64,000 bases of DNA from Alphaproteobacteria bacterium (GTDB taxonomy: Bacteria; Pseudomonadota; Alphaproteobacteria; UBA2966): NCBI GenBank assembly GCA_018650465.1, contig JABIFY010000092.1:15477-79476 (forward strand), given 5' to 3'. This document shows positions 36,361 to 64,000 of this stretch, one piece after another. The translations under genes and the position numbers were made by a program. Under the pieces are notes generated by a model. That model was not told where the DNA came from and made no database searches. It was given only the letters and a program-made list of their open reading frames with translations. The first letter of the stretch is position 1, and each line of letters begins with the position of its first letter.

Positions 36361-36641
36361 ATACTGTCTGGACTATTCTGGAAGGTCAGCCAGGGCATCT
36401 CTGATTTCTTGTAGATTGCAGGGCTTGCGAATAATCGGAATGATGCCCCCAAATCTTCCTGGGTTTGTTCCATATTTTCATTACTATTCAAGGCCTTGAT
36501 GCCGCGCTGCGTTTTCAAAAGAGCCGCACAGACCAAACCAAATGATAATCTATTTTATCGACAAAGCATTGTTGCTCGCAGGATGAGTGCCGGATACTCT
36601 TGAATAGCTAATTCCCCAATAATTTCCTTCCGAAATACAAA

Positions 36642-37055: not shown

Positions 37056-37084
37056 ACCGGATCATTGAATCAAGGACAGGAATT

Positions 37085-37918
37085 ATGACCAGTGGAGTAG
37101 TCGCAAGCGCAATCGTGCCCCATACACCTCGCATGGGCGTTGAGGAATCCGCACCGGATTTTGTCCGTCCACTTATCCAGGGACAACGCGATCTTGGTGA
37201 AGAACTACGCGCGCTCAAACCAGATGTAATTGTCTTGCAGTCCAGCCACTGGGTCAGCACATTTAATTGGTACGTGACTGTTAACAAAATCCATGAAGGT
37301 GTTTGCATCGCCGACGAAGCACCAGACCTTATTCCCGGCTCCCCTTACAAATACGATGGTGATCCAGAATTCGGACAGGCCGTTGTCGATGCGCTCAAAG
37401 GGGCAGGCCTGGCTGTTGGTTTGATGGATTCACCCCATTTCAAATGGGATTATGCCTCATATGTGCCGCTGCATTATCTCGACCCGGAAGCAACGATCCC
37501 GGTCGTCTTGCTGCCATCCGTCATATGTTCTGATCTGAATGAAAACATCAGGGTTGGTGGACTTGTACATGAGGCCGCAGTCAAGGAGGGCAAAAAAGTT
37601 GTTTACCTGGGCAGTTGCGCCCTCGCTCACAAAGTTGTCCGTGGGCCCCATTTGTGGCCATCACAGGAGCATATGGATACAGATAAAAAGCTGATTTCCA
37701 TGTTCTGTGACGGCGAAATAGATGCGTTGATTGATTGGCTGCCTGCTTATGCTCACGATGTTGTCACCGAAATGGGGGGGCGACCCCTTGCCGGGATGTT
37801 GGGGGCAACTGCTGCCATGGCCGGGGATACTGGTCGTGTCCGTGGCAAACAATGGGGTCCCTACGGACAAAGTTCCGGATCTGGCAATGCCAGCATTTGT
37901 GTTTTGCCAGCAGACTAA
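37085..37918 (+). CDS. Class III extradiol ring-cleavage dioxygenase, LigB family (AmnB/HpaD-like)
   Basis: AIVPHTPR N-terminus, PDVIVLQSSHW, WDYASYVPLHYL and LGSCALAHK match LigB-family landmarks. Confidence 0.65.
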   Translation: MTSGVVASAIVPHTPRMGVEESAPDFVRPLIQGQRDLGEELRALKPDVIVLQSSHWVSTFNWYVTVNKIHEGVCIADEAPDLIPGSPYKYDGDPEFGQAVVDALKGAGLAVGLMDSPHFKWDYASYVPLHYLDPEATIPVVLLPSVICSDLNENIRVGGLVHEAAVKEGKKVVYLGSCALAHKVVRGPHLWPSQEHMDTDKKLISMFCDGEIDALIDWLPAYAHDVVTEMGGRPLAGMLGATAAMAGDTGRVRGKQWGPYGQSSGSGNASICVLPAD

Positions 37919-37948
37919 TTCGTAAATAATACAGAACGGAATTTAACC

Positions 37949-46006: not shown

Positions 46007-46139
46007 TCTTGATCTGTTGAAAAACCCAGATATTCCATACATTTATTGTTGATGTCGGTTTATTTGCTGGTCCCGTTGTCAGCAGGTGGTTTTTCGTGGG
46101 AAAACACAGGTTCTGAATATAGAAGAGGATGCAGGTAGT

Positions 46140-47567
46140 ATGCTGATCAACGGAAATTGGACCGAAGCCCCTGAAGGCGCTTTGTTTGACGTTATTAACC
46201 CGGCAAATGGAGACGTGGTGGGGCAAGTGCCGGATGGTAATGCAGCATCTGCCCGATCCGCCATTGAAGCGGCTGCGGCTGCCTTTGGTTCCTGGTCAAA
46301 AACTACTGCACATGCCAGATCTGCAATCCTTTACAAGGCCTGGCAACTGATGCTGGAGCGCAAGGAGGACCTGGCCCGGACGATGACGCTGGAGCAGGGA
46401 AAACCGCTGCGTGCGGCGACGACCGAAGTTCAGTATGCAGCTGATTTTCTGCTTTGGTTCGCCGAAGAAGCAAAGCGAAGCTATGGGGAAACCATCCCCT
46501 CGGCCCGGGCCGATCAACGCTTTATTGTATCTCATTATCCGGTTGGTGTGGTTGCCGCGATTACGCCGTGGAATTACCCCGTTTCCATGATTACCCGAAA
46601 AGTGGGCCCGGCGTTGGCTGCGGGCTGTACCGTTGTATTAAAACCGGCTGAGGCCACACCGCTGTGTGCAATCAAGGTTTTCGAAATATTGACAGAAGCT
46701 GGCCTGCCTGACGGTGTCATCAACCTTGTAACAACAAGCAATCCAGCACCGGTGGGCGAAGAATTTGTTTCCAACCCCCTGGTGCGGAAACTCACCTTCA
46801 CCGGCTCGACCGCTGTCGGCAAGATGCTGGCTGGCAAAGCTGCCGGCAACATGAAGCGTGTGTCCTGTGAATTGGGCGGCCATGCGCCGTTTCTGGTATT
46901 TGATGACGCTGACCCGGTACACGCGGCCAAGGGCGTGCAGTTGGTGAAATTTCTGAACACCGGCCAGGCTTGCATCAGTCCTAACCGTATATTTGTGCAC
47001 CAGTCCAAAGTCGATGCCTTTGTCGATACCCTGCAATCGCGGGTCGCGAACATGAAGGCGGGCTCAGGCATGGAAGATGGTGTGACCATCGGACCACTTG
47101 TTGATGAGCGCGCCGTTGCCAAGGTTTCTGCCCAGGTCGATGATGCCGTCGCCAAGGGAGCTGAAGTCGTTTGCGGCGGTAATCGGTTGCTTTCCAACGG
47201 ACTGGAAAAAGGATTCTTTTATGCACCAACGGTGCTTAGGGGTGTGACGCCGGACATGTTGATCTACCGCGAGGAAACTTTTGGACCGGTCGCCCCGATC
47301 ATCACCTTTGACGATGATCAGGAAGCGCTGAAAATGGCAAATGATACAAATTATGGCCTCGCGGCTTATGTTTACACACGCGATATCTCACGCGCCATGC
47401 GCATGTTTGAAGCGCTGGAATTTGGCATTATCGGGGTGAACGATATTAACCCCAGCGCCGCATCGGCACCGTTTGGCGGCATGAAGGACAGTGGTCTTGG
47501 CCGCGAGGGCAGTCGTGAAGGTATGGCTGAATATCTTGAAACCAAACTGGGTGGCTTCGCGATTTAG
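46140..47567 (+). CDS. NAD(P)-dependent aldehyde dehydrogenase (succinate-semialdehyde-dehydrogenase-like)
   Basis: MLINGNWTEAP...VINPANGDV N-terminus. ELGGHAP and catalytic Cys (QACISPNR) are present. Confidence 0.8.
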   Translation: MLINGNWTEAPEGALFDVINPANGDVVGQVPDGNAASARSAIEAAAAAFGSWSKTTAHARSAILYKAWQLMLERKEDLARTMTLEQGKPLRAATTEVQYAADFLLWFAEEAKRSYGETIPSARADQRFIVSHYPVGVVAAITPWNYPVSMITRKVGPALAAGCTVVLKPAEATPLCAIKVFEILTEAGLPDGVINLVTTSNPAPVGEEFVSNPLVRKLTFTGSTAVGKMLAGKAAGNMKRVSCELGGHAPFLVFDDADPVHAAKGVQLVKFLNTGQACISPNRIFVHQSKVDAFVDTLQSRVANMKAGSGMEDGVTIGPLVDERAVAKVSAQVDDAVAKGAEVVCGGNRLLSNGLEKGFFYAPTVLRGVTPDMLIYREETFGPVAPIITFDDDQEALKMANDTNYGLAAYVYTRDISRAMRMFEALEFGIIGVNDINPSAASAPFGGMKDSGLGREGSREGMAEYLETKLGGFAI

Positions 47568-49867: not shown

Positions 49868-49952
49868 TTGCCGTGATCATAGGGCGGTAATTGAGACCTG
49901 ACGAGGCGGCAAAAGACAAATATCTTGACTCCCAAATACCGTTTGCATACTA

Positions 49953-50825
49953 ATGATTAATACATTGACTGGGAGGGAAGTTCTGTTGCGTTATTTCCTG
50001 CCGGATACGGTTGCTGAGGCGACCGCCGGACTAGCTGAAAAAAATTATCGGATCGTTGCGGGCGGCACGGATTTTTACCCCGCCCTGGCTGATCAGCCTG
50101 TGCGCGACGACGTCATGGATATTTCCGGCCTGCAAGCTTTGCGCGGCATCGCCCGGGAAACCAAACACACCCGCATTGGTGCCCTTGCCACCTGGACAGA
50201 TATTGCCCGGGCGGAGCTGCCAAATAAATTCCGCGGCCTGCAACTGGCGGCGCGTGAAGTGGGGGCTTTGCAAATACAGAATGTGGCGACCGTTGCAGGC
50301 AATCTTTGCAATGCCTCGCCCGCGGCGGACGGCGTGCCGCCCCTGTTGACCCTGAATGCGCAAGTCGAAATCTCCGCTGCGAACGGCCAGCGTGTTTTAC
50401 CGCTGGATCAGTTCATCCTTGGCAACAGGCGCACGGCGCTGGAGCCAAATGAAATGCTGACCGCCATTTTGATCCCGAATGATGCAGAAGCGGCAAACAG
50501 TCATTTTATGAAACTGGGCTCCCGGCAATATCTGGTTATCTCCTACGTCATGGTGGCGACTTTGCTGGAAGCAGACGATTCCGGCATTATCACCCAGGCC
50601 CGGGTTTCGGTTGGCGCCTGTTCCGAGGTGGCGTGCCGTCTTGCCGATCTTGAAGCGGCACTCGTTGGGCAACCCTTGACAACGACCAGTGCTGTCGTGC
50701 GGCCCGACCATCTGTCCATCCTTGCGCCCATCGATGATATTCGGGCGTCGGCTGATTATCGCCTGGCGGCAGCGTTGGAATATACCAGGCGCAGCCTTTC
50801 GGCCTGTACGGAGGGTCTGTTATGA
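49953..50825 (+). CDS. Xanthine-dehydrogenase-family FAD-binding subunit (CoxM/XdhB-like)
   Basis: RIVAGGTDFYP FAD-binding motif and C-terminal CO-dehydrogenase flavoprotein domain. Confidence 0.8.
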   Translation: MINTLTGREVLLRYFLPDTVAEATAGLAEKNYRIVAGGTDFYPALADQPVRDDVMDISGLQALRGIARETKHTRIGALATWTDIARAELPNKFRGLQLAAREVGALQIQNVATVAGNLCNASPAADGVPPLLTLNAQVEISAANGQRVLPLDQFILGNRRTALEPNEMLTAILIPNDAEAANSHFMKLGSRQYLVISYVMVATLLEADDSGIITQARVSVGACSEVACRLADLEAALVGQPLTTTSAVVRPDHLSILAPIDDIRASADYRLAAALEYTRRSLSACTEGLL

Positions 50826-53581
50826 CATCACCTGGTACGAGTGGGTCTGTCGACTTTTCCCTGAACGGAAAACCGGTTTCAGTTTCCGTTGATCCCACGC
50901 GTCGGCTGTCACAAGTGCTGCGCGAAGACCTTGGTCAGACCGGCACCAAAATAGGTTGTAATGCGGGCGACTGCGGGGCCTGTACGGTGTTGGCCGATGG
51001 CCTTTCGGTTTGTGCCTGCATGGTACCTGTCGGGCGGTTGCAGGGTGCGCAAATCCAGACCGTGGAGGGATTGGCTGAAGCGGGCATTCCCAATCGACTG
51101 CAAAAAGCATTTTTGCATTTTGGCGCCGCCCAGTGTGGCATTTGTACGCCGGGTATGTTGATGGCGGCCACCGCATTGCTGGCGGAAAACGCCCGTCCCG
51201 ATGAAGCCCAGGTAAAAGACGCGCTGGGCGGTGTGCTTTGCCGCTGTACAGGATATCGCAAGATCATCCAGGCGGTGATGGCTGCCCATGATTTTGATGC
51301 CGAACCTTTGCGGGCTGAAACCGGCACGGCAGTGGGCACTCGCCTTAACCGGCTTGATGGTGAAGAAAAGGTTCTCGGCACAGATTTGTTTGGTGATGAC
51401 GTTGCTGGACAAGGTGCACTCGTCCTCAAGGTTATTCGCTCACCTTATCATCGGGCGTCATTTTCCTTCGGGGATACAGGCGGGTTACTGGTGACAACAC
51501 CTGGCCTGATCAAAATCCTGACCGCCAGCGATATTCCGGGCAGAAATTTACATGGCGTTATTCCGGATACTGTCGATCAACCAGTCTTTGCCGTGGCTGA
51601 AACCCGTTTCAAGGGCGAGGCGATTGCTGCCGTGGTTGGGGATGCCGACGCCGTGGACAAGTTTGATGTGTCGGACTTTCCCGTGACCTGGACGGAACGA
51701 CCCGCGTACCTGACGCCGGAAAAGGCTTTGGCTGACAATGCACCCCTGATACATGCCAACCGGCCCGGAAATATCCTGATGAACGGCATCGTGCAGCGCG
51801 GTGATCTGGCGGCCGGCTTCGCGCACAAAGACGCCACGATTGCCGAAGGCGATTTCATCACCGGCTTTGTTGAGCACGGTTATATTGAACCGGAAGCGGG
51901 CCTGGCCCAACGTGTGGGCGACCGACTTGAAATGCATGTTTGCACCCAGTCGCCCTATATGGATCGCGATGACACGGCAGCTATTCTTGGTATCGCCAAA
52001 GAAGATGTGCGCATCATACCGACGGCGGTTGGCGGTGGCTTTGGCAGCAAGCTTGATCTCTCGGTCCAGCCCTATATCGCACTGGCCGCCTGGTTGCTGG
52101 ATCGCCCTGTGCGCATGACCTACAGCCGCCAGGAAACCATGATGTCGACAACCAAACGACATCCTTCAGCCATCAAGGCCAGAATCTCTGCAGACAAACA
52201 GGGCAAGCTGTTATCCATGGATTTCAACGGCGTGTTCAACACCGGGGCCTATGCTTCGTGGGGACCGACGGTTGGCAATCGGGTGCCGGTACATGCCTCG
52301 GGTCCTTATATATATGATGCCTATCGCGCCCGCAGTCAGGCGGTGCATACCCATTGCGTGCCGTCCGGTGCCTTCCGGGGATTTGGTGTGCCGCAATCTT
52401 CCATTGTGCAGGAAACCCTGTTTGATGAACTGGCGGACAAGCTGGCCATTGATCGGCTGGACTTTCGTTTGCGCAACGCCCTGGTGAACGGTGCAACGAC
52501 GGTTTGTGGCCAGGTCTTCAGCGAAGGTGTGGGCATCAAGGATTGCCTGCAAAGTCTGAAACCCCATTGGGACCGGGCCTTGTCTGAAGCTGATGGTTTC
52601 AATGCCGCATCAGATGGCAGCTTGCGACGCGGTGTGGGTGTGGCGGGCATGTGGTACGGCTGTGGCAACACGTCGCTGCCCAATCCGTCGACCATCAAGG
52701 TTGCCATTCGCAATGATGGCCAGGTGGTTCTGTTCCAGGGTGCTGTGGATGTGGGGCAGGGGGCCAACACCGTTATCACACAAATCTGTGCTGATGCCGC
52801 AGGCCTGGACATCCTCAATTTTTCTCTTGTCTATGGTGATACCGATCTAACGGCGGACGCGGGTAAAACCTCAGCCTCACGCCAAACCTTTATCAGTGGC
52901 AAGGCGTCATACCTCGCGGGCCAGGATTTGCGCAAAAAAATCCTGCGTATGGTCAATGCCAGTGAAGATGCGCGCCTCGCCATTAATGGCAGCAAAATTA
53001 CCGCCATCGATACAGCCGGGCGAAATGATATCGATCTGGCTGCCTTGCCGGCGGATGAAGATGGATTTGTCTTTACTGGTGAAGGAACCTTTGATCCACC
53101 TACCGTGGCCCTCGATGAAAATGGCCAGGGTGAACCCTATGCGGTTTTTGGATATGGCGCACATATGATGGAACTGGAAGTCGATACCCGCCTGGGCACG
53201 GTACGCTTGATCAAGCTGACGGCCGCCCATGATGTGGGCAAAGCCATTAACCCAACCCTGATTGAAGGCCAGATCGAAGGCGGTGCAGCCCAGGGACTGG
53301 GCCTCGCTCTGATGGAAGAATTTGTGCCGGGCCGCACCGAAAATCTGCACGATTATTTGATTCCGACCATTGGCGATGTGCCCGAGGTGGAATCGATCCT
53401 TGTTGAAGTGCCCAACGCACATGGTCCTTACGGGGCCAAAGGCATAGGTGAACAAGTTCTGATCCCGACTGCGCCAGCCATCCTCAATGCCATCCGACAT
53501 GCCACGGGTGCGGTTTTACGGGATATGCCCGCAACGCCAGAAAAAGTGCGCAATGCAGTTTTGCGGGCGAAAGGGAATTAG
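50822..53581 (+). CDS. Xanthine-dehydrogenase-family fused [2Fe-2S] + molybdopterin-binding subunit
   Basis: N-terminal plant-type and second 2Fe-2S Cys motifs (CNAGDCGACTV; CGICTPG). Large aldehyde-oxidase/XDH Mo-binding body. 4-nt overlap with the FAD subunit. Confidence 0.8.
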   Translation: MTSPGTSGSVDFSLNGKPVSVSVDPTRRLSQVLREDLGQTGTKIGCNAGDCGACTVLADGLSVCACMVPVGRLQGAQIQTVEGLAEAGIPNRLQKAFLHFGAAQCGICTPGMLMAATALLAENARPDEAQVKDALGGVLCRCTGYRKIIQAVMAAHDFDAEPLRAETGTAVGTRLNRLDGEEKVLGTDLFGDDVAGQGALVLKVIRSPYHRASFSFGDTGGLLVTTPGLIKILTASDIPGRNLHGVIPDTVDQPVFAVAETRFKGEAIAAVVGDADAVDKFDVSDFPVTWTERPAYLTPEKALADNAPLIHANRPGNILMNGIVQRGDLAAGFAHKDATIAEGDFITGFVEHGYIEPEAGLAQRVGDRLEMHVCTQSPYMDRDDTAAILGIAKEDVRIIPTAVGGGFGSKLDLSVQPYIALAAWLLDRPVRMTYSRQETMMSTTKRHPSAIKARISADKQGKLLSMDFNGVFNTGAYASWGPTVGNRVPVHASGPYIYDAYRARSQAVHTHCVPSGAFRGFGVPQSSIVQETLFDELADKLAIDRLDFRLRNALVNGATTVCGQVFSEGVGIKDCLQSLKPHWDRALSEADGFNAASDGSLRRGVGVAGMWYGCGNTSLPNPSTIKVAIRNDGQVVLFQGAVDVGQGANTVITQICADAAGLDILNFSLVYGDTDLTADAGKTSASRQTFISGKASYLAGQDLRKKILRMVNASEDARLAINGSKITAIDTAGRNDIDLAALPADEDGFVFTGEGTFDPPTVALDENGQGEPYAVFGYGAHMMELEVDTRLGTVRLIKLTAAHDVGKAINPTLIEGQIEGGAAQGLGLALMEEFVPGRTENLHDYLIPTIGDVPEVESILVEVPNAHGPYGAKGIGEQVLIPTAPAILNAIRHATGAVLRDMPATPEKVRNAVLRAKGN

Positions 53582-53583
53582 TG

Positions 53584-55080
53584 ATGCCAGATGACAAAGA
53601 AGACCTCGTCGTTTGTGATGCCTGCCCGGTACGTTGTCGCATCAAACAAGGCCGCCCCGGTGCGTGCGATCGATATGCAAATGTTGATGGCCTGCTGACC
53701 CGCGTTGACCCGCTAACCGTGGTTGAACGGGCCGAAACCCACGGCACACCCCTGGTGCCTTTCCTGAAAAATGATCAGGAATGGAGCGGTGATCTGGTGC
53801 AGTCTGAAAACACCTTTGTCACTGCTGTGGGTGCTGGCACCACCTATCCCGACTATAAACCGGCCCCTTTCATAGTCTCCAGCGAGGTGGACGGTGTGGA
53901 TATGGTGACCGTGGTCACAGAAGGCATCTACAGCTACTGCGGCGTCAAGATCAAGGTCGATACAGATCGCCACCTGGGCCATGAAGCCGCCTCAGTACGG
54001 GTCGACGGCGAAGTCGTTGGCCATGTCACGACAGGTGAATACGGATCACAAATGATGTCCCTCGGCGGTGTTGCCCATCTGACCGGCGGCAGTAAAAAAG
54101 AAGGCCGCGTGACCTGTCAGACCCTGATGGATTTGTGCAATTGCAAGCCGGTCAAGCTGACGATTGATGACGGCGTGTCGATCATTGTTGAGGCCGGCAA
54201 GGCCCCGATCATTGATGACGTGACGGAGGAACGCATGCGCGTTGGTTGTGGCTCCGCCGCAATCGGTATGTTCGCCATGCAGTGGCAGCCCCTGGTCGAC
54301 GAAGTCGTTGTGGTAGATGATCACATCACCGGCGTGATGTCAGAACACGAAGCCGGAAAAGTTCTGGATGTACCGCCCACGGGTATTTCCATCAACGGCC
54401 GTCGCTCGACCCCCGGTCGCTATTTCAAGGTCGCCGAACCAGGTACGGGTTGGGGTGGTACAGATATCAGCGATCCCCTGTCGATCCTCAACGACTTTAA
54501 GCCAGCAGATGCCAAACCAGGCACAACCCTGTTGATGGTCTCGACCACCGGCGAACATTATGCTTATTTTGTGCTGGACGATAATCTGAAACCTGTCGAA
54601 GAACCCTTGCCGGATGTCTTGATGGCCTCGGTCGAACGGGTGCGGGAAAATTGTGAACCGGCATTATGTTCTGTGTTGTTCATTGGCGGTGCCGGTGGCT
54701 CGCTTCGGGCAGGCGTTACCGAAAATCCCGTCAAGCTGACCATGTCCGTGAAGGACGCCTTGACCAATGTTACCAGCGGCGGAGCGGAAACCTTTGTCTG
54801 GCCTGGCGGGGGCATTACCTACATGGTCGACGTGACGCGCATGCCTGAAAATTCCTTTGGTTATGTCCCCACACCGGCCATCGTCGCCCCCATCGAATTT
54901 TCCATGCGTCTTGAAGATTACGCGGCCCTGGGTGGCCATATGGAGTCGATTGTGCCTTTGGCCGAGGTGCTAAAGGATCCGAACCTTCGTCCTGTGGAAC
55001 AGGGCGAAAGTTCCTGGCCCATGGAAAAGAGCCAGTATAAATGGCCAGATGAGCAAAAAGACGAGCGCAAAGATGAATAG
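53584..55080 (+). CDS. Cys-rich conserved protein, possible 6-hydroxynicotinate-reductase (Hnr)-like
   Basis: N-terminal CDACPVRCRIKQGRPGACDRY Cys cluster. No other fold recognisable by eye. Starts 3 nt after the Mo-subunit stop. Confidence 0.45.
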   Translation: MPDDKEDLVVCDACPVRCRIKQGRPGACDRYANVDGLLTRVDPLTVVERAETHGTPLVPFLKNDQEWSGDLVQSENTFVTAVGAGTTYPDYKPAPFIVSSEVDGVDMVTVVTEGIYSYCGVKIKVDTDRHLGHEAASVRVDGEVVGHVTTGEYGSQMMSLGGVAHLTGGSKKEGRVTCQTLMDLCNCKPVKLTIDDGVSIIVEAGKAPIIDDVTEERMRVGCGSAAIGMFAMQWQPLVDEVVVVDDHITGVMSEHEAGKVLDVPPTGISINGRRSTPGRYFKVAEPGTGWGGTDISDPLSILNDFKPADAKPGTTLLMVSTTGEHYAYFVLDDNLKPVEEPLPDVLMASVERVRENCEPALCSVLFIGGAGGSLRAGVTENPVKLTMSVKDALTNVTSGGAETFVWPGGGITYMVDVTRMPENSFGYVPTPAIVAPIEFSMRLEDYAALGGHMESIVPLAEVLKDPNLRPVEQGESSWPMEKSQYKWPDEQKDERKDE

Positions 55081-56173
55081 CGCTTTTGCCCGCATTTTGC
55101 CCGACGGCAAACGCCTGCATTTGCAGCAAGGCCCCATTGATCTGGTGATCGATGCAGATGGCGATGAGGCTGAAGTTGCCTTGGCTTTTGAGCAGGCGAT
55201 GCGGGCCTTCGAGCCTGTGTTGACGGATTTGGTAGCGGAATTGGAAGTGTTGCGGAAGGTCCTGGCGCCACACTCCTCTACCGTCATGCGCGGGCTTGAC
55301 CCGCGTACCCACGCCTTCGGGGAACAGGTCTGCCAGAAGGCGAATTTCCTGAGTTCTGCATCATCCTCAAATGACCAGAGTTCTGCGCCTGAAGATAAAT
55401 GCCGTCAAGACGTGGGTACCCGTGTCAAGCACGGGCATGACGGACGTGGGGTGCAGTTTTACGATCCGAATAAATCCAATCCTGTCGCGAACATCATGAC
55501 ATCCGCCGCAGCCAACTTCGCAGCCCACAACGTCAGCCCCATGATCGCCGTCGCCGGGTCCGTCGCCGACTACATCCTGGATAAAATGCTGGCAGGGCGA
55601 ACGCTGAATCGAGTCTACGTCAATAACGGTGGCGATATATCACTGTATCTGAACGACGGCCACAGCTTTGATATCGGTATCGTCGACCGGGTTGATGCAC
55701 CCGAAATTTCCGCCACGGCTCATATCACATCCAATGACACCGTTCGTGGCGTCGCGACCAGCGGCTGGAGAGGACGCAGTTTCTCGCTTGGTGTGGCTGA
55801 CGCGGTAACCGTCCTTGCCCCGACGGCGGCTCTGGCAGACGCTGCCGCAACTCTGATCGCCAATGAAGTTGATCCCGGCCCTTGTTTTGAAATTTCCCGC
55901 ACGCCGGCCCATGACCTGGACCCCGACAGTGACCTCGGCGCACGACTGGTGACAACCGATGTCCAGCCTTTGTCGGCCCGGCAAAAAGACCTGGCCCTGC
56001 AACGCGGTCAGGACCTGGCCCGGACTTTTGTTCGGGACGGTTTGATCACGGCTGCTGCCTTGTCCCTGCAGGGCAGTACGCGCATGGCCGGGGACCTCAA
56101 TCCCAAAATTAGTCTCAATAACAACGTTGCCCCAAACAATCCTGATCCGGAGAAAAAATATGCCCGCGGTTGA
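55073..56173 (+). CDS. Conserved hypothetical protein (C-terminal region possibly UPF0280/ApbE-like)
   Basis: ATG overlaps the upstream stop by 8 nt. Segment PMIAVAGSVADYILDKM...VYVNNGGDISL is weakly reminiscent of UPF0280. Confidence 0.35.
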   Translation: MNSAFARILPDGKRLHLQQGPIDLVIDADGDEAEVALAFEQAMRAFEPVLTDLVAELEVLRKVLAPHSSTVMRGLDPRTHAFGEQVCQKANFLSSASSSNDQSSAPEDKCRQDVGTRVKHGHDGRGVQFYDPNKSNPVANIMTSAAANFAAHNVSPMIAVAGSVADYILDKMLAGRTLNRVYVNNGGDISLYLNDGHSFDIGIVDRVDAPEISATAHITSNDTVRGVATSGWRGRSFSLGVADAVTVLAPTAALADAAATLIANEVDPGPCFEISRTPAHDLDPDSDLGARLVTTDVQPLSARQKDLALQRGQDLARTFVRDGLITAAALSLQGSTRMAGDLNPKISLNNNVAPNNPDPEKKYARG

Positions 56174-56744
56174 ACTCAGAAAACAAATCATATCCGTCGA
56201 GGAAACCTGGCACGAAGGTGGCCCGGTTGCACAAACACCCAACCGCCGGGCCAGTGGCATGATCATCATCAAAAATCCCTTCGCCGGAAAATATGTGGAA
56301 GATATCCAGCCTTTCATTGAAGATCTGAAACCCTTTGGTCTGGCCCTGGCGACTGCTGTGCTGGATGCTCTGGGTGGCGATGGTTCTGCCATTGAAGGTT
56401 ATGGCAAGGGTGCCATCATCGGCGAGGCCGGAGAGCTGGAGCATGGTGCCCTGTGGCATCCCGCCGGTGGTTATGCCATGCGGGCCCTGTTGGATGGCAC
56501 CAAGGCCATTGTTGCCTCAACCAAAAAAGTTGGTGGGGTCGGGGCCCGGCTGGATGTACCGATCACCCATACCAATGCATCTTATGTGCGCAGTCATTTT
56601 GATGCCATGGAAGTGGGCTGCAATGATGCGCCGCGCGCCAACGAGCTGGCCTACATACTGGTCATGAGCACCGGACCCCGCGTCCACAGCCGGTCTGGCG
56701 GTCTGGAAGTAGCCGACGTTAAAGGAGAGGATGGATTAAAATGA
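56160..56744 (+). CDS. Amino-acid-synthesis family (PF06684/DUF1185-like) protein, paralogue 1
   Basis: Shared motifs with the downstream paralogue: NPFAG, GELEH, YVRSHFDAMEV, NDAPRANE. Confidence 0.45.
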   Translation: MPAVELRKQIISVEETWHEGGPVAQTPNRRASGMIIIKNPFAGKYVEDIQPFIEDLKPFGLALATAVLDALGGDGSAIEGYGKGAIIGEAGELEHGALWHPAGGYAMRALLDGTKAIVASTKKVGGVGARLDVPITHTNASYVRSHFDAMEVGCNDAPRANELAYILVMSTGPRVHSRSGGLEVADVKGEDGLK

Positions 56745-57328
56745 CTACTGCAATAATTCGCAAGATCATCACTGTTGTCGACGAAACTCACATTGAAATG
56801 GGCAAGGCCATCTCGCCCGCAACCCGGCGGGCTGCGGCCATCGCCGTCATCGCCAACCCCTTTGCGGGCAGCTATACGGAAGACCTCGATCCTCTGATGG
56901 AAATCGGTGCGGAGCTGGGCGGTATATTGGGCGCGCGCGCCGTTGAGGCTTTGGGGATCACGCCGGAGCAGGCCGAGAGCTATGGCAAAGCGGCCATCGT
57001 TGGTGAAAATGGTGAGTTGGAACATGCAGCTGCAATTTTACATCCCAAACTGGGTGCCCCCTTGCGCAAGGCCGTCGAAAAGGGTGCTGCTCTGGTGCCT
57101 TCTGCCAAGAAGATGGGCGGTCCTGGTACGCCCATGGATGTGCCCCTCGGTCACAAGGAAGCCGCCTATGTGCGCAGCCATTTCGATGCCATGGAAGTGC
57201 GCGTCAATGATGCCCCGCGGGCCAATGAAATTCTGGTCGCCGTTTGTGTCACGGACAGCGGGCGGCCTTTGCCAAGGGTCGGTGGTCTGACCCATGAAGA
57301 TGCCGAAGGCAAAGACGGCTTGCGCTAG
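56741..57328 (+). CDS. Amino-acid-synthesis family (PF06684/DUF1185-like) protein, paralogue 2
   Basis: About 45-50% identical to paralogue 1 over the full length. 4-nt overlap. Confidence 0.45.
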   Translation: MTTAIIRKIITVVDETHIEMGKAISPATRRAAAIAVIANPFAGSYTEDLDPLMEIGAELGGILGARAVEALGITPEQAESYGKAAIVGENGELEHAAAILHPKLGAPLRKAVEKGAALVPSAKKMGGPGTPMDVPLGHKEAAYVRSHFDAMEVRVNDAPRANEILVAVCVTDSGRPLPRVGGLTHEDAEGKDGLR

Positions 57329-57342
57329 GCTGGACCCCGAAT

Positions 57343-58401
57343 ATGCAATTCATCCATAACAGCTGGTACGTGGCAGGTTGGTCGAAAGAGTTCACGCGTG
57401 AGCTAAGCAAAGCCACGATCCTTGGCGAAAACATCGTCTTCTACCGCACTGAAGCCGGCACCGTTACGGCCCTGGAAGATCGTTGTCCGCATAAACTGTT
57501 GCCTTTGTCCGAAGGTCGGTTGATCGGTGATGATTTGCAGTGCGGTTATCACGGCGTGACCTTTGGCTGCGACGGTAAATGTGTGCGGGTGCCGGGCCAA
57601 TCAGTGCTGCCTAAAAGCGCCTGGGTGCGCCACTTCCCCACGTTCGAGCGTCACAATATTGTCTGGATCTGGATGGGTGATGAGGGCAAAGCGGATGAAA
57701 GTCTGGTCTTTGATTTGCCGGAACTTTCCAGTCCTGACTATGCGCCGCACCAGGGCAATCCGCTGCCTTATGCCTCAAACTATCTGAATGTGGCCGACAA
57801 TCTGTGCGACCCGGCCCATGTCAGTTTCGTGCACCCGACAACGCTGGGCAATCCTGAGATGGAGGATTTGCCTATTGATTCCGAAATGACGGGGGATGGC
57901 ACAGTGATTACCTCGCGCTGGACCCGCGATACCCCGCCTGTGGGTGTGTTTCAGGGACTGTCGGGCTTTGGCGTGAATTTCCGGGGCAACGTAGATCGCT
58001 GGCAATATTACATCATGAATGTGCCGTGTGTGGCCGTGATCGATTTTGGCAGTGCTGAGGTCTCGCAAGAAATAACTTATGACCGACGGGCGGAAGGTGT
58101 GCATATATATGCCATTCATTTTCTGACGCCCGTGGACGAGTTCCGCACGATTGATCGTTGGATGCATGTGCGAAATTTTGCTCTGCAGGACAAAGCCGTC
58201 GGTGGTGCCATGAATGATCTTTTTAATGTGGCCTTCGCCGAAGATAAAGTTATCCTCGAGGCGATCCAGATTGAGGAACGCCGCCCCAGATCAGCTGAGC
58301 AAGAACAACGACGGCCCTTGCGCATTGCTATCGACAAGGGATCAAACCTCTATCGTCGTCGTATTGATGAGTTGATCAAACAGGAACAGGTGAATGACTG
58401 A
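57343..58401 (+). CDS. Rieske non-haem iron oxygenase alpha subunit, VanA/GbcA/NdmA family
   Basis: Rieske CPHK...CGYHG, mononuclear-Fe motif DNLCDPAHVSFVH. Colinear with the vanillate O-demethylase oxygenase N-terminus (WYVAG...IVFYR...ALEDRCPH). Confidence 0.75.
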   Translation: MQFIHNSWYVAGWSKEFTRELSKATILGENIVFYRTEAGTVTALEDRCPHKLLPLSEGRLIGDDLQCGYHGVTFGCDGKCVRVPGQSVLPKSAWVRHFPTFERHNIVWIWMGDEGKADESLVFDLPELSSPDYAPHQGNPLPYASNYLNVADNLCDPAHVSFVHPTTLGNPEMEDLPIDSEMTGDGTVITSRWTRDTPPVGVFQGLSGFGVNFRGNVDRWQYYIMNVPCVAVIDFGSAEVSQEITYDRRAEGVHIYAIHFLTPVDEFRTIDRWMHVRNFALQDKAVGGAMNDLFNVAFAEDKVILEAIQIEERRPRSAEQEQRRPLRIAIDKGSNLYRRRIDELIKQEQVND

Positions 58402-58819
58402 AGATCGGAAAGGCTACGCCCTGGACGATCAGGTCGGGTTTATCCTGCGCGAAGTTGGCCAGCGCCACAGCACGATTTTTGCGGGCAAGATGATTGAGCG
58501 CCTCACGCCCACCCAGTTTGCCGCCATGGCCAAGCTGATCGAGGTCGGTGATTGTTCGCAAAATCAACTGGGCCGCCACACAGCGATGGATGTGGCCACG
58601 ATCAAGGGCGTTGTGGATCGTTTGGCCAAGCGCGGATTTGTGGACAGTCATGCCGACGACAAAGACGCCCGCCGCCGTATCGTTTGCCTGACCGATACGG
58701 GTCGCGATGTGGCCTTGCGGGCCATCCAGGTTGCGGGAGACATCACCCGGGAAACATTGAAACCCTTGTCAGAAGCCGGGCAAAAACAGCTGCTGAAGCT
58801 GTTGAGGGAATTACGTTAA
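58394..58819 (+). CDS. MarR family transcriptional regulator
   Basis: Winged-helix segment LTPTQFAAMAKL...QNQLGRHTAMDVATIKGVVDRLAKRGFV...DARRR. Confidence 0.75.
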   Translation: MTEDRKGYALDDQVGFILREVGQRHSTIFAGKMIERLTPTQFAAMAKLIEVGDCSQNQLGRHTAMDVATIKGVVDRLAKRGFVDSHADDKDARRRIVCLTDTGRDVALRAIQVAGDITRETLKPLSEAGQKQLLKLLRELR

Positions 58820-58867
58820 TCGGGCATTCTGGCCCAAATCAAAATAGCATGACAGGGAAGTAATATA

Positions 58868-59974
58868 ATGAAAACACGTGCAGCCATCGCCACCCAGGCC
58901 GGAAAACCGCTTGTTATTGAAGAAGTCGATCTGGACGGACCACAGCCCGGCGAGGTTCTGGTTGAAATCAAGGCGACAGGCGTTTGTCACACGGATGCTT
59001 TCACCCTGTCTGGCGATGATCCGGAAGGGGCCTTTCCGGCGATCCTGGGTCACGAAGGGGCCGGTATTGTGCGGGAAATTGGCAAAGGCGTAACTTCCGT
59101 GGAAGTGGGCGATCATGTGATCCCGCTTTACACGCCCGAGTGCCGGGAATGCGAATACTGCCTCAATCACAAGACCAATCTTTGTCAGTGCATTCGGGAA
59201 ACCCAGGGTGCGGGGGTCATGCCCGATGGCTCCAGCCGCTTTTCCCTGAACGGCAAAAAAATCCTGCATTATATGGGCTGTTCTACCTTTTCGAATTTTA
59301 CCGTGTTGCCGGAAATTGCCGTCGCCAAGGTGCGTAAAGACGCGCCGTTTGAACAAATTTGTTATATCGGTTGCGGTGTCACAACCGGCGTCGGGGCCGT
59401 CGCCCTGGATGCCAAGGTCGAGCCCGGCTCCAACGTCGTGGTCTTTGGCCTCGGCGGCATTGGCCTGAATGTGGTGCAGGGTGCGCGCATGGTGGGGGCC
59501 AACAAGATTATCGGCGTCGATCTGAATGATGGCCGGGTGGAGTTGGCGAAAAAATTCGGCATGACCGACTTCATCAACCCCAGTGAATGCGACAATGTTG
59601 TCGAAGCCATCATGGATATGACCAATGGGGGTGCTGATTATTCCTTCGAATGTATCGGCAATACCATGACCATGCGTCAGGCCCTGGAATGCTGTCACAA
59701 GGGTTGGGGCGAAAGCATCATCATTGGCGTCGCTGGTGCCGGTCAGGAAATTTCCACGCGCCCGTTCCAGCTGGTTACCGGCCGGGTCTGGCGTGGTACA
59801 GCCTTTGGCGGCGCCCGTGGCCGGACTGATGTGCCAAAGATTGTCGACTGGTACATGGACGGCAAAATCAACATCGACGACTTGATCACCCACACCATGC
59901 CGTTGGATGAAATCAACAATGCTTTCGATCTGATGCACAAGGGCGAGTCAATTCGCTCTGTTGTTTTGTATTAG
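58868..59974 (+). CDS. frmA: S-(hydroxymethyl)glutathione dehydrogenase / class III alcohol dehydrogenase
   Basis: Colinear with ADH3 ([50 protein letters not shown]). Confidence 0.85.
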
Positions 59975-60014
59975 GAACGATTATTTTTGGCGACTACTCT
60001 GGGGGGAAAGAACA

Positions 60015-61172
60015 ATGTCTAAACTTGTCATCAAAAATATCGGCCTGGTGCTCAGTGGCGATCTGGATAATCCGGTGTTGGATGCGGACACTATCGCCAC
60101 AGAAGATGGCAAGATCACCGGCATTGGGGCTGAGAAAGACTTTGATCAGGAAGGGGCCACGGTCGTTGATGCCAAAGGCACGACTGTCACCCCCGGTCTG
60201 ATCGACAGCCATGTGCACCCGGTCGCGGGCGACTGGACCCCACGTCAAAGCCAGCTCAACTGGATCGATTCAAGCTTGCATGGTGGCGTCACCACCATGA
60301 TCTCGGCCGGCGAGGTGCACTATCCAGGACGGGCCAAGGATATCGTTGGCCTGAAAGCGCTGGCGATCACGGCGCAGCGAGCCTTTGATAATCTGCGCCC
60401 CTCGGGGGTCAAGGTGCATGCCGGTGCGCCGGTCATTGAACAGGGCATGGTCGAACAGGATTTCAAAGAGTTGGCCGAGGCTGGCGTAAAACTGCTGGGT
60501 GAAATTGGCCTGGGCAGCGTCAAGGCCGGGGCGGAGGCCAAACAGATGGTCACCTGGGCCCGAAAATATGGCATTCAAAGTACCATCCACACCGGTGGCC
60601 CTTCCATTCCAGGCTCTGGCCTGATCGACAAGGACGTGGTGCTGGAAGCTGATGCCGATATCATCGGCCACATCAATGGCGGGCACACGGCTTTGCCTGA
60701 CGACCAGATCACCTGTCTTTGTGAAAGCTGCGGTCGTGGCATCGAAATCGTGCATAACGGCAACGAGCGCTCCGCTCTGCTGGCCCTGAATTGCGCTCGT
60801 GAACTGAAGCAGATGGAACGCGTTATCCTTGGCACGGACGGCCCGGCTGGTTCCGGTGTACAGCCCTTGGGAATTTTGCGTATGGTGTCCATGTTGTCAG
60901 CCCTGGGCCAGGTGCCCGCAGAAATCGCCCTGTGTTTTGCCACCGGCAATACGGCCCGCATGCGTGATCTGAATTGCGGCATTATCGAAGTCGGACGTGA
61001 GGCCGATTTTGTGATTATGGACCGGGCCCAGCATTCTCCGGCGGAAACCATTCTGGAGAGTATCCAGCTTGGTGATCTGCCGGGCGTCGGCATGACCATT
61101 ATTGATGGTGTCATCCGCAGCGAACGCAGCCGCAATACCCCACCCGCCAACACCCTGCCCGAAGTAATCTAG
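60015..61172 (+). CDS. Amidohydrolase-superfamily protein, enamidase-like
   Basis: MSKLVIKNIGLVLSGD N-terminus. Metal-binding HVHPV. Size and layout are consistent with the single-domain amidohydrolase group that includes enamidase. Strong SD (GGGGGGAAAG) upstream. Confidence 0.55.
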   Translation: MSKLVIKNIGLVLSGDLDNPVLDADTIATEDGKITGIGAEKDFDQEGATVVDAKGTTVTPGLIDSHVHPVAGDWTPRQSQLNWIDSSLHGGVTTMISAGEVHYPGRAKDIVGLKALAITAQRAFDNLRPSGVKVHAGAPVIEQGMVEQDFKELAEAGVKLLGEIGLGSVKAGAEAKQMVTWARKYGIQSTIHTGGPSIPGSGLIDKDVVLEADADIIGHINGGHTALPDDQITCLCESCGRGIEIVHNGNERSALLALNCARELKQMERVILGTDGPAGSGVQPLGILRMVSMLSALGQVPAEIALCFATGNTARMRDLNCGIIEVGREADFVIMDRAQHSPAETILESIQLGDLPGVGMTIIDGVIRSERSRNTPPANTLPEVI

Positions 61173-61285
61173 CTATCTGTTATTAAACAATAAATCAAAT
61201 ATCTGGCGACAAGGCTTGAACCGGACCCGTAATCAGGTTTGAATCGTTCAAAATCCCTTTCCTTCGAAACCCACAGGACCCCGTC

Positions 61286-62995
61286 ATGCGTAAACATTTG
61301 ACCCTCAATCTTGCCACCCGCGACGCCAGCAGCAAAACTGTTGAAGGCGAAGACCTGGCCCGTGCCGGGCGCTGGTTGATCGCCCGCACGTTGCTGGACG
61401 AAGGTGCGGCGACCGTTGATCCCCTGTCGCCAGGTAACCCGCTGATTTTTTCTGCCGGTCCGTTTGCAGGCACCAACTTCTCCAATGCCAACCGTTTGTC
61501 TGTAGGCTGCAAAAGCCCGCTGACCGGTGGCATCAAGGAAGCGAACTCTGGTGGTACATTCGCTTACGCCATGGGCCAGAACGAAATGTCCGGCATTACC
61601 TTCTGCGAGGCTTCGGACGATTGGGTTGTCATCCACATCAACAAAGAAGGCGATGTAACTTACGATGATGCCACGCCTTACATGGGCAAAAGCAACTTCG
61701 AAGCCGCCGATATGCTGATCGAAAAATACGGCAAGAAAATCTCCTATGCCCTGTGCGGTCCCGTCGGCGAATACCAGGGCCTGATGTCGGCCATCGCTTT
61801 CCCCGATCCTGAAGGTGGCCCAACCCGCTTTGCCGCCCGTGGTGGCGTGGGCGCCGTGATGGGCAGCAAAAAGGTCAAGGCTGTGATCATCGAACAGATC
61901 AAGATGCCAACCTTTGTGGACCGTAAAAAGGTCATGAGCCACGTCAAGGACTATGGTGCCAAACTGGGCGAGGAAGCCGCTATTCAAACTTTTGCTGATT
62001 ACGGCACCGCCATTGTGGCCGACCTCACCAACAAGATCGGCGGGCTGCCGGTGAACAATTTCAGCAAGGGCCAGCAGGTCAACTCCAAGGAACAAACCTT
62101 CGAGATGGGCGGCACCTTTATTCACGACCTGAACAAATCCCGTGGCGGCGAAACGACCCACGCCTGCATGCCGGGCTGCTTGATCCGTTGCAGCAATAAC
62201 TTTCATGGTGAAGACGGCGAATCCATTACCGCCCCGCTGGAATATGAAACCATCGGCTTGATGGGTACCAACTGTGGTCTGACCCACCCCGACCAGGTGG
62301 CGCGGGTCAACCAGGTGGCCAATGATTTGGGCATCGATACCATCGAAATCGGTTGCACCATCGGCGTACTGATGGAAGCAGGCGAGGGCGAATTTGGTGA
62401 CGAAGCCTTTATGATGCAGGTGCTGGAAGATATCCGCGCTGGCAATGAAAAGGGCAAACTATATGCGCAAGGCACCCAGCGGGTCGGCGAACATTTTAAC
62501 GTCAAACGCATTCCCGCCATCAAGAAACAAGGCATCAGTGCCTATGACCCGCGTGTGATCGAGGTCACAGGTATGAGCATGATGTTAACCGCCCAGGGCG
62601 CGGATCATACGGCCGGAAACATGCCGGGCTATCCTTGCAAAGACAAGACCACCGAAGACCTGATGGCCGTCAGCATGGACAGCCAAATGAACTGCGCCGC
62701 CGCCGACAGCCTCGGCCTGTGCATCTTTGGTCGCTCGGTGACCGAAACCAATTCCCAGCTGATCGTCGATGCCATCAACGCCGCCTTTGGCACCAGCCTG
62801 GAGCCATCCTTCGTGCCGAAACTGGGCACTGCCGCCCTGAAACTGGAAGACGAGTTCAACCGCGCCGCTGGCTTCACCGCAGCCGACGACGAACTGCCTG
62901 ACTTCTTCAACACCGAAGCGCTTGCCCCCACCGGCAAAACCAACCGCCACCAGGTGGGCGACCTGCATACCTTCCGCGAAAACTGGTGGAATTAA
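61286..62995 (+). CDS. Aldehyde:ferredoxin oxidoreductase (AOR) family tungsto/molybdo-pterin enzyme
   Basis: AOR N-terminal domain (LIFSAGPFAGT, SVGCKSPLTGG, RGGVGAVMGSKKVKAVII). 4Fe-4S and pterin region (HACMPGCLIRCSN, LEYETIGLMGTNCGL). Confidence 0.75.
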   Translation: MRKHLTLNLATRDASSKTVEGEDLARAGRWLIARTLLDEGAATVDPLSPGNPLIFSAGPFAGTNFSNANRLSVGCKSPLTGGIKEANSGGTFAYAMGQNEMSGITFCEASDDWVVIHINKEGDVTYDDATPYMGKSNFEAADMLIEKYGKKISYALCGPVGEYQGLMSAIAFPDPEGGPTRFAARGGVGAVMGSKKVKAVIIEQIKMPTFVDRKKVMSHVKDYGAKLGEEAAIQTFADYGTAIVADLTNKIGGLPVNNFSKGQQVNSKEQTFEMGGTFIHDLNKSRGGETTHACMPGCLIRCSNNFHGEDGESITAPLEYETIGLMGTNCGLTHPDQVARVNQVANDLGIDTIEIGCTIGVLMEAGEGEFGDEAFMMQVLEDIRAGNEKGKLYAQGTQRVGEHFNVKRIPAIKKQGISAYDPRVIEVTGMSMMLTAQGADHTAGNMPGYPCKDKTTEDLMAVSMDSQMNCAAADSLGLCIFGRSVTETNSQLIVDAINAAFGTSLEPSFVPKLGTAALKLEDEFNRAAGFTAADDELPDFFNTEALAPTGKTNRHQVGDLHTFRENWWN

Positions 62996-63197: not shown

Positions 63198-64000
63198 TTA
63201 TCCCCGCGTTTGGGGTAAATAAAGGCTGATGGTGGTTCCTTTTCCGACTTCGCTGTCGACCGTAATGTGGCCCATGGATTGTTTTATGAAGCCGTAGACC
63301 ATACTGAGGCCAAGGCCGGTGCCGACGCCGGATATTTTGGTCGTGAAAAAGGGTTCGAACACTTTTTCAAGAACATCGGGGGGCATGCCTGTGCCTGTGT
63401 CGATCACTTTGACTTCAACATAGTCACCAGGCACCACCTCATCATTTTCTGCGGCGAAGACTTGATCAAGGATAACATTGGCCGTTTTGATGGTCAGGGT
63501 GCCGCCGTGGGGCATAGCGTCACGCGCGTTGATAGACAGGTTGAGCAAGGCGTCTTCAAATTGGTGCGGGTCGATTTCTGCCTGGGCCAATTCCTCGCCG
63601 CACATGGTTGAAAGCGAAATTGTTTCTCCCAGGGTTCGTTGCAGCATTTCTTCAAAGCCCTGAACCATTTCATTGATGTCTGTCGCCTGAGGTGACAGGG
63701 TTTTCTTCCGGGAAAATACCAGTAAACGGCTGGTCAGGGACGAGCCTCGATCAACGGCATTGATGATCGCATTTATGCTAAATAACGCATCCTTGTCCTC
63801 ACCCACCTTGTCCGACAACATTTCGGCATTGCCGACCATGACACTCAGCAGATTGTTGAAGTCGTGGGCAATTCCCCCGGTGAGTTGTCCAACAGCTTCC
63901 ATCTTCTGGGCATGGCGAAGTTGCTCTTCCAGCAAGTTGGACCTGGTCAGATCTGTGGCGATAGTGCCAATCCCCTTGATCTCTCCATCGTCGCCATAGA
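63198..64000 (-). CDS. Sensor histidine kinase (HisKA + HATPase), N-terminus beyond window
   Basis: H-box [21 protein letters not shown] is nearly identical to the kinase at 43182. HATPase N, G1 and G2 boxes present. The reading frame is open to nt 64000 (…[27 protein letters not shown]). Confidence 0.8.

Follow-up and report, generated by a model that had tools for sequence, protein, structure and literature searches.

This analysis concerns a gene cluster related to known nicotinate degradation loci, which lies in a window of 64,000 nucleotides from contig JABIFY010000092.1; the source is the metagenome-assembled genome (MAG) of an uncultured alphaproteobacterium, and "the window" means here the whole 64-kb stretch that was analysed. 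According to the list of open reading frames (ORFs) of the window, positions 49953-62995 are filled by 11 tightly packed ORFs, all on the + strand. A first-pass annotation of the same DNA had spoken of thirteen genes, which was a miscount, since it named 11 functions itself. Its domain calls all hold, with Pfam or NCBIfam profiles matching for the FAD subunit, the FeS/molybdenum cofactor subunit, the two PF06684 proteins, the Rieske protein, the MarR protein, the formaldehyde dehydrogenase, the amidohydrolase and the AFOR domains. We chose the gene starts that were backed by homologues and by the gene calls on an identical public contig. With these starts the junctions up to 57328 are -4, +2, -8, -14 and -4 nt, and those after it are +14, -8, +48, +40 and +113 nt, which agrees roughly with the earlier description of overlaps up to 57328 and short gaps from there on, with measured ranges of -14 to +2 and -8 to +113 nt.

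The first two genes encode a molybdenum hydroxylase. The FAD subunit (49986..50825, +), with the domains PF00941 (FAD_binding_5) and PF03450 (CO_deh_flav_C), resembles NdhF, the FAD subunit of the nicotinate dehydrogenase of Eubacterium barkeri, with 35% identity and an E value of 8e-37. Its probable start is the TTG codon at 49986, which has the Shine-Dalgarno sequence GGGAGGG in front of it and is also the start called on the identical contig; the formal alternative, ATG at 49953, falls within the promoter-like element described below. The second gene (50822..53581, +) encodes a chain of 919 aa in which two [2Fe-2S] domains (Fer2/Fer2_2) are fused to the molybdopterin-binding domains (MoCoBD_1/2), so that the counterparts of E. 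barkeri NdhS, NdhL and NdhM, to which it is 46%, 35% and 41% identical, are found in one polypeptide. The scores against chains A, B and D of PDB entry 3HRD add up to 222+221+136 = 579 bits, and this sum tops that of every other solved molybdenum hydroxylase. No NCBIfam equivalog reached its cut-off for the enzyme. As the first step of the pathway, this two-gene hydroxylase would convert nicotinate to 6-hydroxynicotinate.

The third gene (53584..55080, +) encodes a 6-hydroxynicotinate reductase (Hnr) in a proteobacterial short form, assigned by homology to E. barkeri Hnr (42% identity over 456 aa, E 1e-100). Homologues of this protein number in the thousands, and many are named 6-hydroxynicotinate reductase by NCBI. 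Against Pfam it gave only a sub-threshold match to GCV_T_C, and it has no NCBIfam family and no relative among the PDB sequences. An AlphaFold2 model built on a 24-sequence alignment was poor (pLDDT 64.5, pTM 0.54), and a Foldseek comparison of this poor model with the PDB returned zero matches at E <= 0.001. Hnr would carry out the second step, the reduction of 6-hydroxynicotinate to 1,4,5,6-tetrahydro-6-oxonicotinate (THON). The third step, the opening of the THON ring to (S)-2-formylglutarate and NH3, would fall to the enamidase (60015..61172, +), which aligns end to end with PDB 2VUN (residues 19-400 against 1-383, E 2.7e-114), keeps the HxH motif, and is 47% identical to E. barkeri Ena (E 8e-128). 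Its start is at 60015, which is the one given in the first-pass annotation.

Between hnr and the Rieske gene lie three genes that the first-pass annotation had treated as an unknown protein and two small paralogues added to the pathway. That view was not borne out, and all three have counterparts in E. barkeri and belong to the ancestral cluster. The UPF0280/AbpE_bact (ApbE-like) protein (55073..56173, +; NF003322 with 325 bits against a cut-off of 290, and PF27030 on the identical contig) is 40% identical (E 4e-26) to the E. barkeri ORF directly 3' of hnr, and its gene directly follows hnr in almost every cluster for which the hnr context is available, tblastn having been negative in L067 and L121. 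We infer that it may act as a maturation factor for Hnr, through flavin transfer. The window copy is about 70 residues longer than the 297-aa homologues, owing to a Ser/Asp-rich low-complexity stretch, and its identity to the counterpart in L031, the 80% relative, is no more than 52%, against 83-93% for the neighbouring genes. The two PF06684 proteins ('AA_synth', DUF1185; 56160..56744 and 56741..57328, both +; E 7e-66 and 2e-74) are 45% and 52% identical, respectively, to a single E. barkeri ORF located directly 3' of ena. The second has a chorismate-mutase-like fold, matching PDB 2QTP (Ruegeria pomeroyi SPO0826) with an E value of 2e-95; 3BYQ is a further PF06684 entry in the PDB. The report of the fold (PMC2954203) also explains the Pfam family name: 'Amino acid synthesis' goes back to ABC transporter genes in the neighbourhood that were labelled 'branched-chain amino-acid'. 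These transporter genes appear to be the transporter of a nicotinate cluster, which suggests that PF06684 is misnamed and is better seen as an accessory of pyridine-ring catabolism of the Hnr/enamidase type. As a fourth element of the proposed scheme, the UPF0280/ApbE-like and the two PF06684 proteins would be ancestral accessories of the hydroxylase, Hnr and enamidase steps.

The nicotinate cluster of E. barkeri VPI 5359 (L001) was found through the enamidase sequence of the 2VUN alignment, and all window proteins were compared with its ORFs. Six gene families are common to the two clusters (NdhF, NdhS/L/M, Hnr, the UPF0280-like ORF, Ena and the PF06684 ORF), and the first three reactions are alike. 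Thus the likeness to E. barkeri Ndh, Hnr and Ena that the first-pass annotation had noticed, including that of 53584-55080 and 60015-61172 to the Hnr and Ena families, is true homology, at 35-47% identity. The window cluster differs in that NdhS/L/M are fused, Hnr is without its 2x[4Fe-4S] domain, PF06684 is duplicated, and genes for MarR, a Rieske oxygenase, a formaldehyde dehydrogenase and an aldehyde oxidoreductase (AOR) have been added. Alhapel et al. (2006, PNAS 103:12341) are said to have described the E. barkeri fermentation cluster as ndhFSLM, hnr, ena and downstream genes, and Kitts et al. reportedly described the THON-glutarate route of Azorhizobium in 1989 and 1992. The downstream enzymes of E. 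barkeri are 2-hydroxymethylglutarate dehydrogenase and dehydratase, the B12-dependent 2-methyleneglutarate mutase, methylitaconate isomerase, and dimethylmalate dehydratase and lyase; the remaining ORFs of L001 presumably include these (Hgd, Hmd, the B12 mutase, the isomerase and the dimethylmalate enzymes). They were matched by no window protein, and the Pfam survey of the window found none of the B12-dependent fermentation enzymes, which is consistent with a continuation through glutarate.

Homology and synteny together make it very probable that the core of this locus encodes the reductive ('THON') pathway of nicotinate degradation, of the type that E. barkeri shares with Azorhizobium caulinodans. 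The same cluster is conserved in A. caulinodans, Bradyrhizobium, Rhodopseudomonas and strain SG-6C (Shettigar et al. 2012, PMC3511419), and Azorhizobium and SG-6C degrade nicotinate via 6-hydroxynicotinate (PMC3511419). For the cluster that paper cites Alhapel et al. 2006, and for the way from THON to glutarate in the aerobe Azorhizobium it cites Kitts et al. 1989/1992; the pathway is summarised again in PMC9304392. The Azorhizobium/Bradyrhizobiaceae cluster shares with the window the aerobic alphaproteobacterial setting, Ndh, Hnr, Ena and the conserved proteins of unknown function, and the carbon would presumably go on, as in Azorhizobium, by decarboxylation and oxidation to glutarate. Judged by its published description, that cluster differs in having an ABC transporter, and no Rieske oxygenase, formaldehyde dehydrogenase or AOR has been reported for it (PMC3511419). 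In the domain calls of the 11 genes there was no Pseudomonas-type nic domain (NicAB, 6-hydroxynicotinate monooxygenase or 2,5-dihydroxypyridine dioxygenase), NicC and NicX not having been searched with reference sequences.

We surveyed 24 proteobacterial loci from about 19 lineages, and the conservation of the neighbourhood that the first-pass annotation had proposed to check was found, in that the core recurs throughout, in many cases on a plasmid. Hnr, the UPF0280 protein and one or two copies of PF06684 form its invariant part, usually in the company of a molybdenum hydroxylase, a MarR regulator, a transporter (ABC or TRAP) and a ring-opening enzyme. In the clusters of Neorhizobium, Comamonadaceae and Paracoccaceae, a Pseudomonas-type NicAB takes the place of the XDH-type hydroxylase, and this exchange in three lineages ties the cluster to nicotinate independently. 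The ring-opening enzyme is also exchangeable. Enamidase (9 lineages; L025, L028, L029, L030, L035, L066, L120, L123, L125) and the hydantoinase/oxoprolinase pair HyuA/HyuB (8 lineages; L034, L036, L118, L119, L122, L124, L126, L127) never occur together within the flanks examined (hypergeometric p of about 6e-4), where in L034 and L122 HyuA alone is visible, at the edge of the locus. This pattern suggests that HyuA/HyuB is an ATP-dependent lactam hydrolase serving as the alternative enzyme for opening the THON ring. The second PF06684 paralogue follows the same division, with 70-93% identity in enamidase-type against 42-65% in HyuAB-type clusters, the exception being L122 with 77%.

Upstream of the first gene, at 49926..49954 (+), direct reading of the sequence revealed a promoter-like element, TTGACT-N17-(GTTTGCA)TACTAAT, or TTGAC-N17-GTTTGCATACTAAT, of which the window holds one exact copy. 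The pattern TTGAC...GTTyGCATACTAAT is kept in the 80% relative and in Terasakiella within intergenic DNA that is otherwise divergent. In L067 the same element stands 5' of ena, there the first gene of a rearranged operon, and L063, L066 and L110 have the close variant TTGCTGACTAAT in that place; altogether, the TTGAC...GTTTGCATACTAAT element is conserved in three further lineages. It is most simply read as a promoter, and it may overlap a putative MarR operator; a search of the cluster's intergenic gaps for inverted repeats was negative. The MarR-family protein itself (58394..58819, +; PF01047, NicR-like) had been assigned to a demethylase module in the first-pass annotation. It is instead the predicted regulator of the whole cluster, because a MarR of 45-58% identity recurs in nearly all the proteobacterial nicotinate clusters examined.

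The core of the locus is nothing new, since the biochemistry of the pathway dates from 1989-1992 and its genetics from 2006, and the value of the locus lies in its accessory genes. The window cluster is a decorated variant, with a Rieske oxygenase, a formaldehyde dehydrogenase and an AOR added and without a transporter or ferredoxin-NADP reductase, and within the survey the combination of these three genes with the absence of a transporter was seen in this lineage only. The marine plasmid clusters of the Rhodobacterales/Stappiaceae type, such as those of Sulfitobacter sp. SK025 (NZ_CP025810) and Sagittula stellata E-37 (NZ_CP155730), share the same core and an orthologous Rieske gene after PF06684. 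They differ from the window in having an ABC transporter and ferredoxin-NADP reductase and no AOR or formaldehyde dehydrogenase, and some have HyuAB in place of the enamidase.

One of these additions is the VanA/DdmC-type Rieske non-haem-iron oxygenase (57343..58401, +; Rieske and VanA_C domains), whose motifs C48xH...C67xxH and D156xxHx4H are intact. Its orthologues, at 53-63% identity, lie inside nicotinate clusters and directly after the PF06684 genes in all seven lineages examined, namely this MAG lineage, Denitrobaculum, Stappia, Sulfitobacter, Sagittula, one 5.2-Mb assembled genome and Paroceanicella. Among the plasmid matches there is a gap in identity between 53% and 41%, so that the orthologues are clearly set off. 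Because the orthologues keep to the same position in seven of seven lineages, the Rieske gene can be taken to recur as an accessory in marine nicotinate clusters and is no chance insertion, and its presence in such clusters appears to be undescribed. In every lineage but this one, it directly precedes the binding-protein gene of a transporter; this lineage alone among the Rieske-containing ones has no transporter. It is also the only one (L025, L031, L032) with a glutathione-dependent formaldehyde dehydrogenase (S-(hydroxymethyl)glutathione dehydrogenase, class III ADH; 58868..59974, +; TIGR02818 with 631 bits against a cut-off of 544) in the cluster, two genes 3' of the Rieske gene.

Demethylation with release of formaldehyde is the characteristic chemistry of the VanA/DdmC group of oxygenases, and trigonelline (N-methylnicotinate) is the obvious methylated precursor of nicotinate. 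The formaldehyde dehydrogenase within the cluster, together with the missing transporter, suggests N-demethylation of trigonelline in this lineage. The Rieske protein would act on trigonelline or a closely related methylated compound, giving nicotinate and formaldehyde, and the glutathione-dependent dehydrogenase would remove the latter. We regard this as a tentative proposal, for which the chances fall somewhat short of even, and to this extent the methylated pyridine substrate put forward in the first-pass annotation is a live idea. No trigonelline demethylase is known (PMC10963276), and our literature search found none. The O-demethylases VanA and DdmC and the Rieske N-demethylases (NdmA/B and those of glycine betaine and stachydrine) share the Rieske and VanA_C fold and the metal ligands with the window protein, which differs from them in having no fused or adjacent reductase of the VanB/NdmD type and in standing in the context of a pyridine pathway. 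Two possible connections were set aside. A link to the trigonelline (trc) genes of Sinorhizobium meliloti was dropped, as no S. meliloti plasmid with Hnr was found and the Sinorhizobium/Ensifer matches to the Rieske protein are below 40% identity. The homarine pathway (homABCDER, PMC13236597) is unrelated, as there the methylated ring is opened before demethylation and no Rieske enzyme takes part.

Another addition may be related to the supply of electrons to Hnr. The cofactors reported for Hnr are a covalent flavin, one [2Fe-2S] and two [4Fe-4S] clusters, and the enzyme is reportedly ferredoxin-dependent. In our alignment, the Firmicute proteins, including that of E. barkeri, and the protein of a deltaproteobacterial MAG (L020) carry at the N-terminus a domain of some 56 residues in which the motif CxxCxxCxxxC(P) occurs twice. 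This 2x[4Fe-4S] domain is missing from all alpha- and betaproteobacterial Hnr proteins in the alignment, that of the window included, which retain C-x2-C-x3-C-x9-C and two more invariant cysteines. As far as its sequence goes, the short form appears to be undescribed, and, being without the domain, the window Hnr probably needs an external low-potential partner. Neither ferredoxin-NADP reductase nor a plant-type or 7Fe ferredoxin was found in the 64-kb window.

The last gene of the cluster (61286..62995, +) encodes an AOR-family pterin (W or Mo) aldehyde oxidoreductase of 569 aa with AFOR_N and AFOR_C domains, which matches 1AOR with an E value of 5e-52. It shares with Pyrococcus furiosus AOR (1AOR) and Aromatoleum AorABC (8C0Z) the two-domain AFOR build, the [4Fe-4S] cysteines (CxxxCxxxC) and the pterin-binding DxxGLC motif, and it differs from them in being shorter, in its cysteine spacing of C-x3-C-x3-C rather than C-x2-C-x3-C, and in being a single gene without partners of the AorA/AorC type. 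A W or Mo transporter was not found in the Pfam survey of the window. The subfamily to which it belongs is very large, with 7954 matches at E <= 1e-20, and contains proteobacterial and Thermus proteins; a copy on a Thermus megaplasmid, where it adjoins a type III-B CRISPR-Cmr module, shows that the subfamily reaches aerobes far outside the Proteobacteria. Within nicotinate clusters, AOR is a neighbour of ena in each of three arrangements, two of which have it inside the cluster. In the window and in L031/L032 the order is Ena-AOR at the 3' end, in Terasakiella it is MarR-AOR(-)-Ena, and in L063, L066, L067 and L110 it is PF06684-MarR-Ena-AOR-FAD-MoCo-Hnr. In the AOR tree these nicotinate-linked AORs are spread over two clades at least, and an AOR embedded beside the enamidase in nicotinate clusters appears to be undescribed.

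It can be hypothesized that AOR oxidises the aldehyde released by the enamidase, which would be 2-formylglutarate or, after decarboxylation, glutarate semialdehyde, and that its two low-potential electrons feed the Hnr step, either directly or through a ferredoxin. The attraction of AOR as the electron source is that the number of low-potential electrons set free by aldehyde oxidation, two, is exactly what Hnr consumes, and a 7Fe ferredoxin lies beside two of the AOR-type clusters, while a plant-type ferredoxin is found in one lineage. We hold the case for this double role of AOR, in the oxidation of the pathway aldehyde and in the supply of Hnr, to be evenly balanced. Of the 16 AOR-free lineages, 9 encode a ferredoxin-NADP reductase within the cluster or next to it, and no AOR-type cluster does so. 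This exclusivity is only suggestive.

A number of observations weigh against these roles of the accessory genes, and some of them favour the reading that the pathway is that of nicotinate, with the Rieske protein, the formaldehyde dehydrogenase and AOR as mere passengers, i.e. a generic aryl O-demethylase, a housekeeping adhC and a general aldehyde detoxifier. In the case of AOR, most members of the subfamily are found away from nicotinate genes, which were near AOR in only 5-6 of 80 metagenome loci. A conserved partner was sought in the same 80 loci and none was found, the best candidate being an SDR present in 9, and the closest plasmid-borne relative (L037, Thermus thermophilus HB27 pTT27, 113286-114998; 51% identity) stands alone. 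The exclusivity of AOR and ferredoxin-NADP reductase, which at 13 lineages had a p of about 0.05, weakened at 19 lineages to about 0.12 (3 against 9 of 19) and is not significant; the missing FeS entry domain of Hnr is a sequence observation only; and an SSADH-like aldehyde dehydrogenase encoded 2.4 kb upstream could oxidise the aldehyde instead. In the case of the demethylation, the closest solved relative of the Rieske protein is an O-demethylase, the dicamba enzyme DdmC (3GB4, E 3e-40), and its similarity to NdmA (about 2e-14) is confined to the Rieske domain. The formaldehyde dehydrogenase, in this one lineage only, is the most conserved gene between relatives (95%), as might be expected of a housekeeping gene, and the other six Rieske-containing lineages have no such gene nearby. 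The Pfam survey of the window found no partner reductase, ferredoxin or betaine transporter for the Rieske protein and no S-formylglutathione hydrolase; Rieske-containing clusters of other lineages do carry a ferredoxin-NADP reductase or a Fer2 ferredoxin. Co-transcription of the cluster is inferred from spacing and synteny, because a generic promoter and terminator scan did not rise above shuffled sequence.

Other observations speak against the passenger explanation. The Rieske gene is found at the same place after PF06684 in all seven lineages, which span the Rhodobacterales, Stappiaceae, Kiloniellales-like lineages and this MAG; two independent arrangements place AOR inside the cluster, and ena is its neighbour in every case; and the 11 genes follow closely upon one another on a single strand, downstream of one conserved promoter-like element. 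We consider the passenger explanation rather unlikely.

A different function for the Rieske protein could also be envisioned, as a ring hydroxylase acting on a pyridone such as 6-hydroxynicotinate, in an O2-dependent branch and with no demethylation. For N-heterocycles, molybdenum hydroxylases paired with a Rieske monooxygenase are known, as with 2-oxoquinoline 8-monooxygenase (OxoO), which acts after quinoline 2-oxidoreductase. OxoO is indeed among the distant PDB matches of the window protein, and a ring hydroxylase would account for the six of seven lineages without a formaldehyde dehydrogenase near the Rieske gene. However, the similarity to the VanA/DdmC demethylases extends over the full length of the protein and that to OxoO covers only the Rieske domain, none of the Rieske-containing clusters has a ring-cleavage dioxygenase, and in this lineage a formaldehyde dehydrogenase has been inserted near the Rieske gene. 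We therefore consider ring hydroxylation unlikely.

It is improbable that the molybdenum hydroxylase, Hnr and Ena act on another pyridine carboxylate, e.g. a substituted or isomeric nicotinate. The E. barkeri enzymes are no more than 35-47% identical, the molybdenum enzyme stays below every NCBIfam equivalog cut-off, and the marine members are known from sequence alone, all of which would leave room for another substrate. The cluster type is, however, that of the nicotinate degraders Azorhizobium and SG-6C (PMC3511419), and in three clusters a NicAB-type nicotinate dehydrogenase stands in for the hydroxylase. Very improbable, finally, is the hybrid, undescribed route for a methylated pyridine or purine-like substrate, built of anaerobic- and aerobic-type modules, that the first-pass annotation had proposed: its account of the gene content is accurate and the set of Rieske, formaldehyde dehydrogenase and AOR genes without a transporter is peculiar to this lineage, but six gene families of the 11 genes are common to E. 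barkeri, the core is widespread and already published as a nicotinate cluster for Azorhizobium and Bradyrhizobiaceae (PMC3511419), MarR is the common regulator of such clusters, and nothing indicates purines.

The surroundings of the cluster contain one gene that is possibly associated with it, although it lies outside the region delimited in the first-pass annotation. The SSADH-like aldehyde dehydrogenase mentioned above (46086..47567, +; TIGR01780 with 603 bits against a cut-off of 646) is kept at the same upstream position in the 80% relative, at 88% identity. Two other upstream genes were rejected as cluster members, a GalE-type epimerase, which is a GalE equivalog, and a Zn-ADH, which is missing from the 80% relative. 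Two PAS/histidine-kinase genes (43182-45971 and 63198-63935) bracket the region from the SSADH-like gene to AOR, and the 80% relative has a hemerythrin gene downstream in place of the second. The GC content of the cluster, 56.3% against 51.9% in the remainder of the window, is compatible with lateral acquisition, and in the Rhodobacterales the nicotinate cluster is commonly plasmid-borne.

Farther away, the window holds several features of a different kind. A 117-aa ORF (31298-31651), directly 3' of a fliM-like gene, matches only the C-terminal 80 residues of aldehyde dehydrogenases, and it looks like a truncated gene at a point of rearrangement (region 30018-31651). It is followed by a meta-cleavage gene set (31666-40084) for a hydratase, an acetaldehyde dehydrogenase, an aldolase, extradiol and LigB-type dioxygenases and a TPP enzyme. 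On the - strand, 11984-21635 is occupied by a beta-oxidation-like operon with two acyl-CoA dehydrogenases, an SDR, a thiolase, an enoyl-CoA hydratase, a thioesterase, an AMP-ligase and a TPP enzyme, for which a link to the nicotinate cluster is not evident. There are also three separate EAL-domain (c-di-GMP phosphodiesterase) proteins (373-1578, 7415-8623 and 21691-22542) whose sensor domains differ, one having a receiver domain, one a cNMP-binding domain and one none.

What the decorated cluster would mean for these bacteria depends on its accessory genes. The alternative modules of AOR, ferredoxin-NADP reductase and ferredoxin provide testable hypotheses for the low-potential electron supply to Hnr in aerobes, and the Rieske oxygenase is a concrete demethylase candidate, open to testing in cultured strains of Sulfitobacter, Sagittula, Stappia and Paroceanicella. 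The strongest form of the proposal makes two claims at once, that the Rieske protein is the first molecularly identifiable trigonelline N-demethylase and that AOR returns two low-potential electrons to an Hnr devoid of its ferredoxin domain, and as a whole we regard it as speculative and rather doubtful. If it were true, the pathway would be electronically self-contained in this lineage, and marine alphaproteobacteria would feed an abundant betaine of algae and plants into the breakdown of nicotinate.

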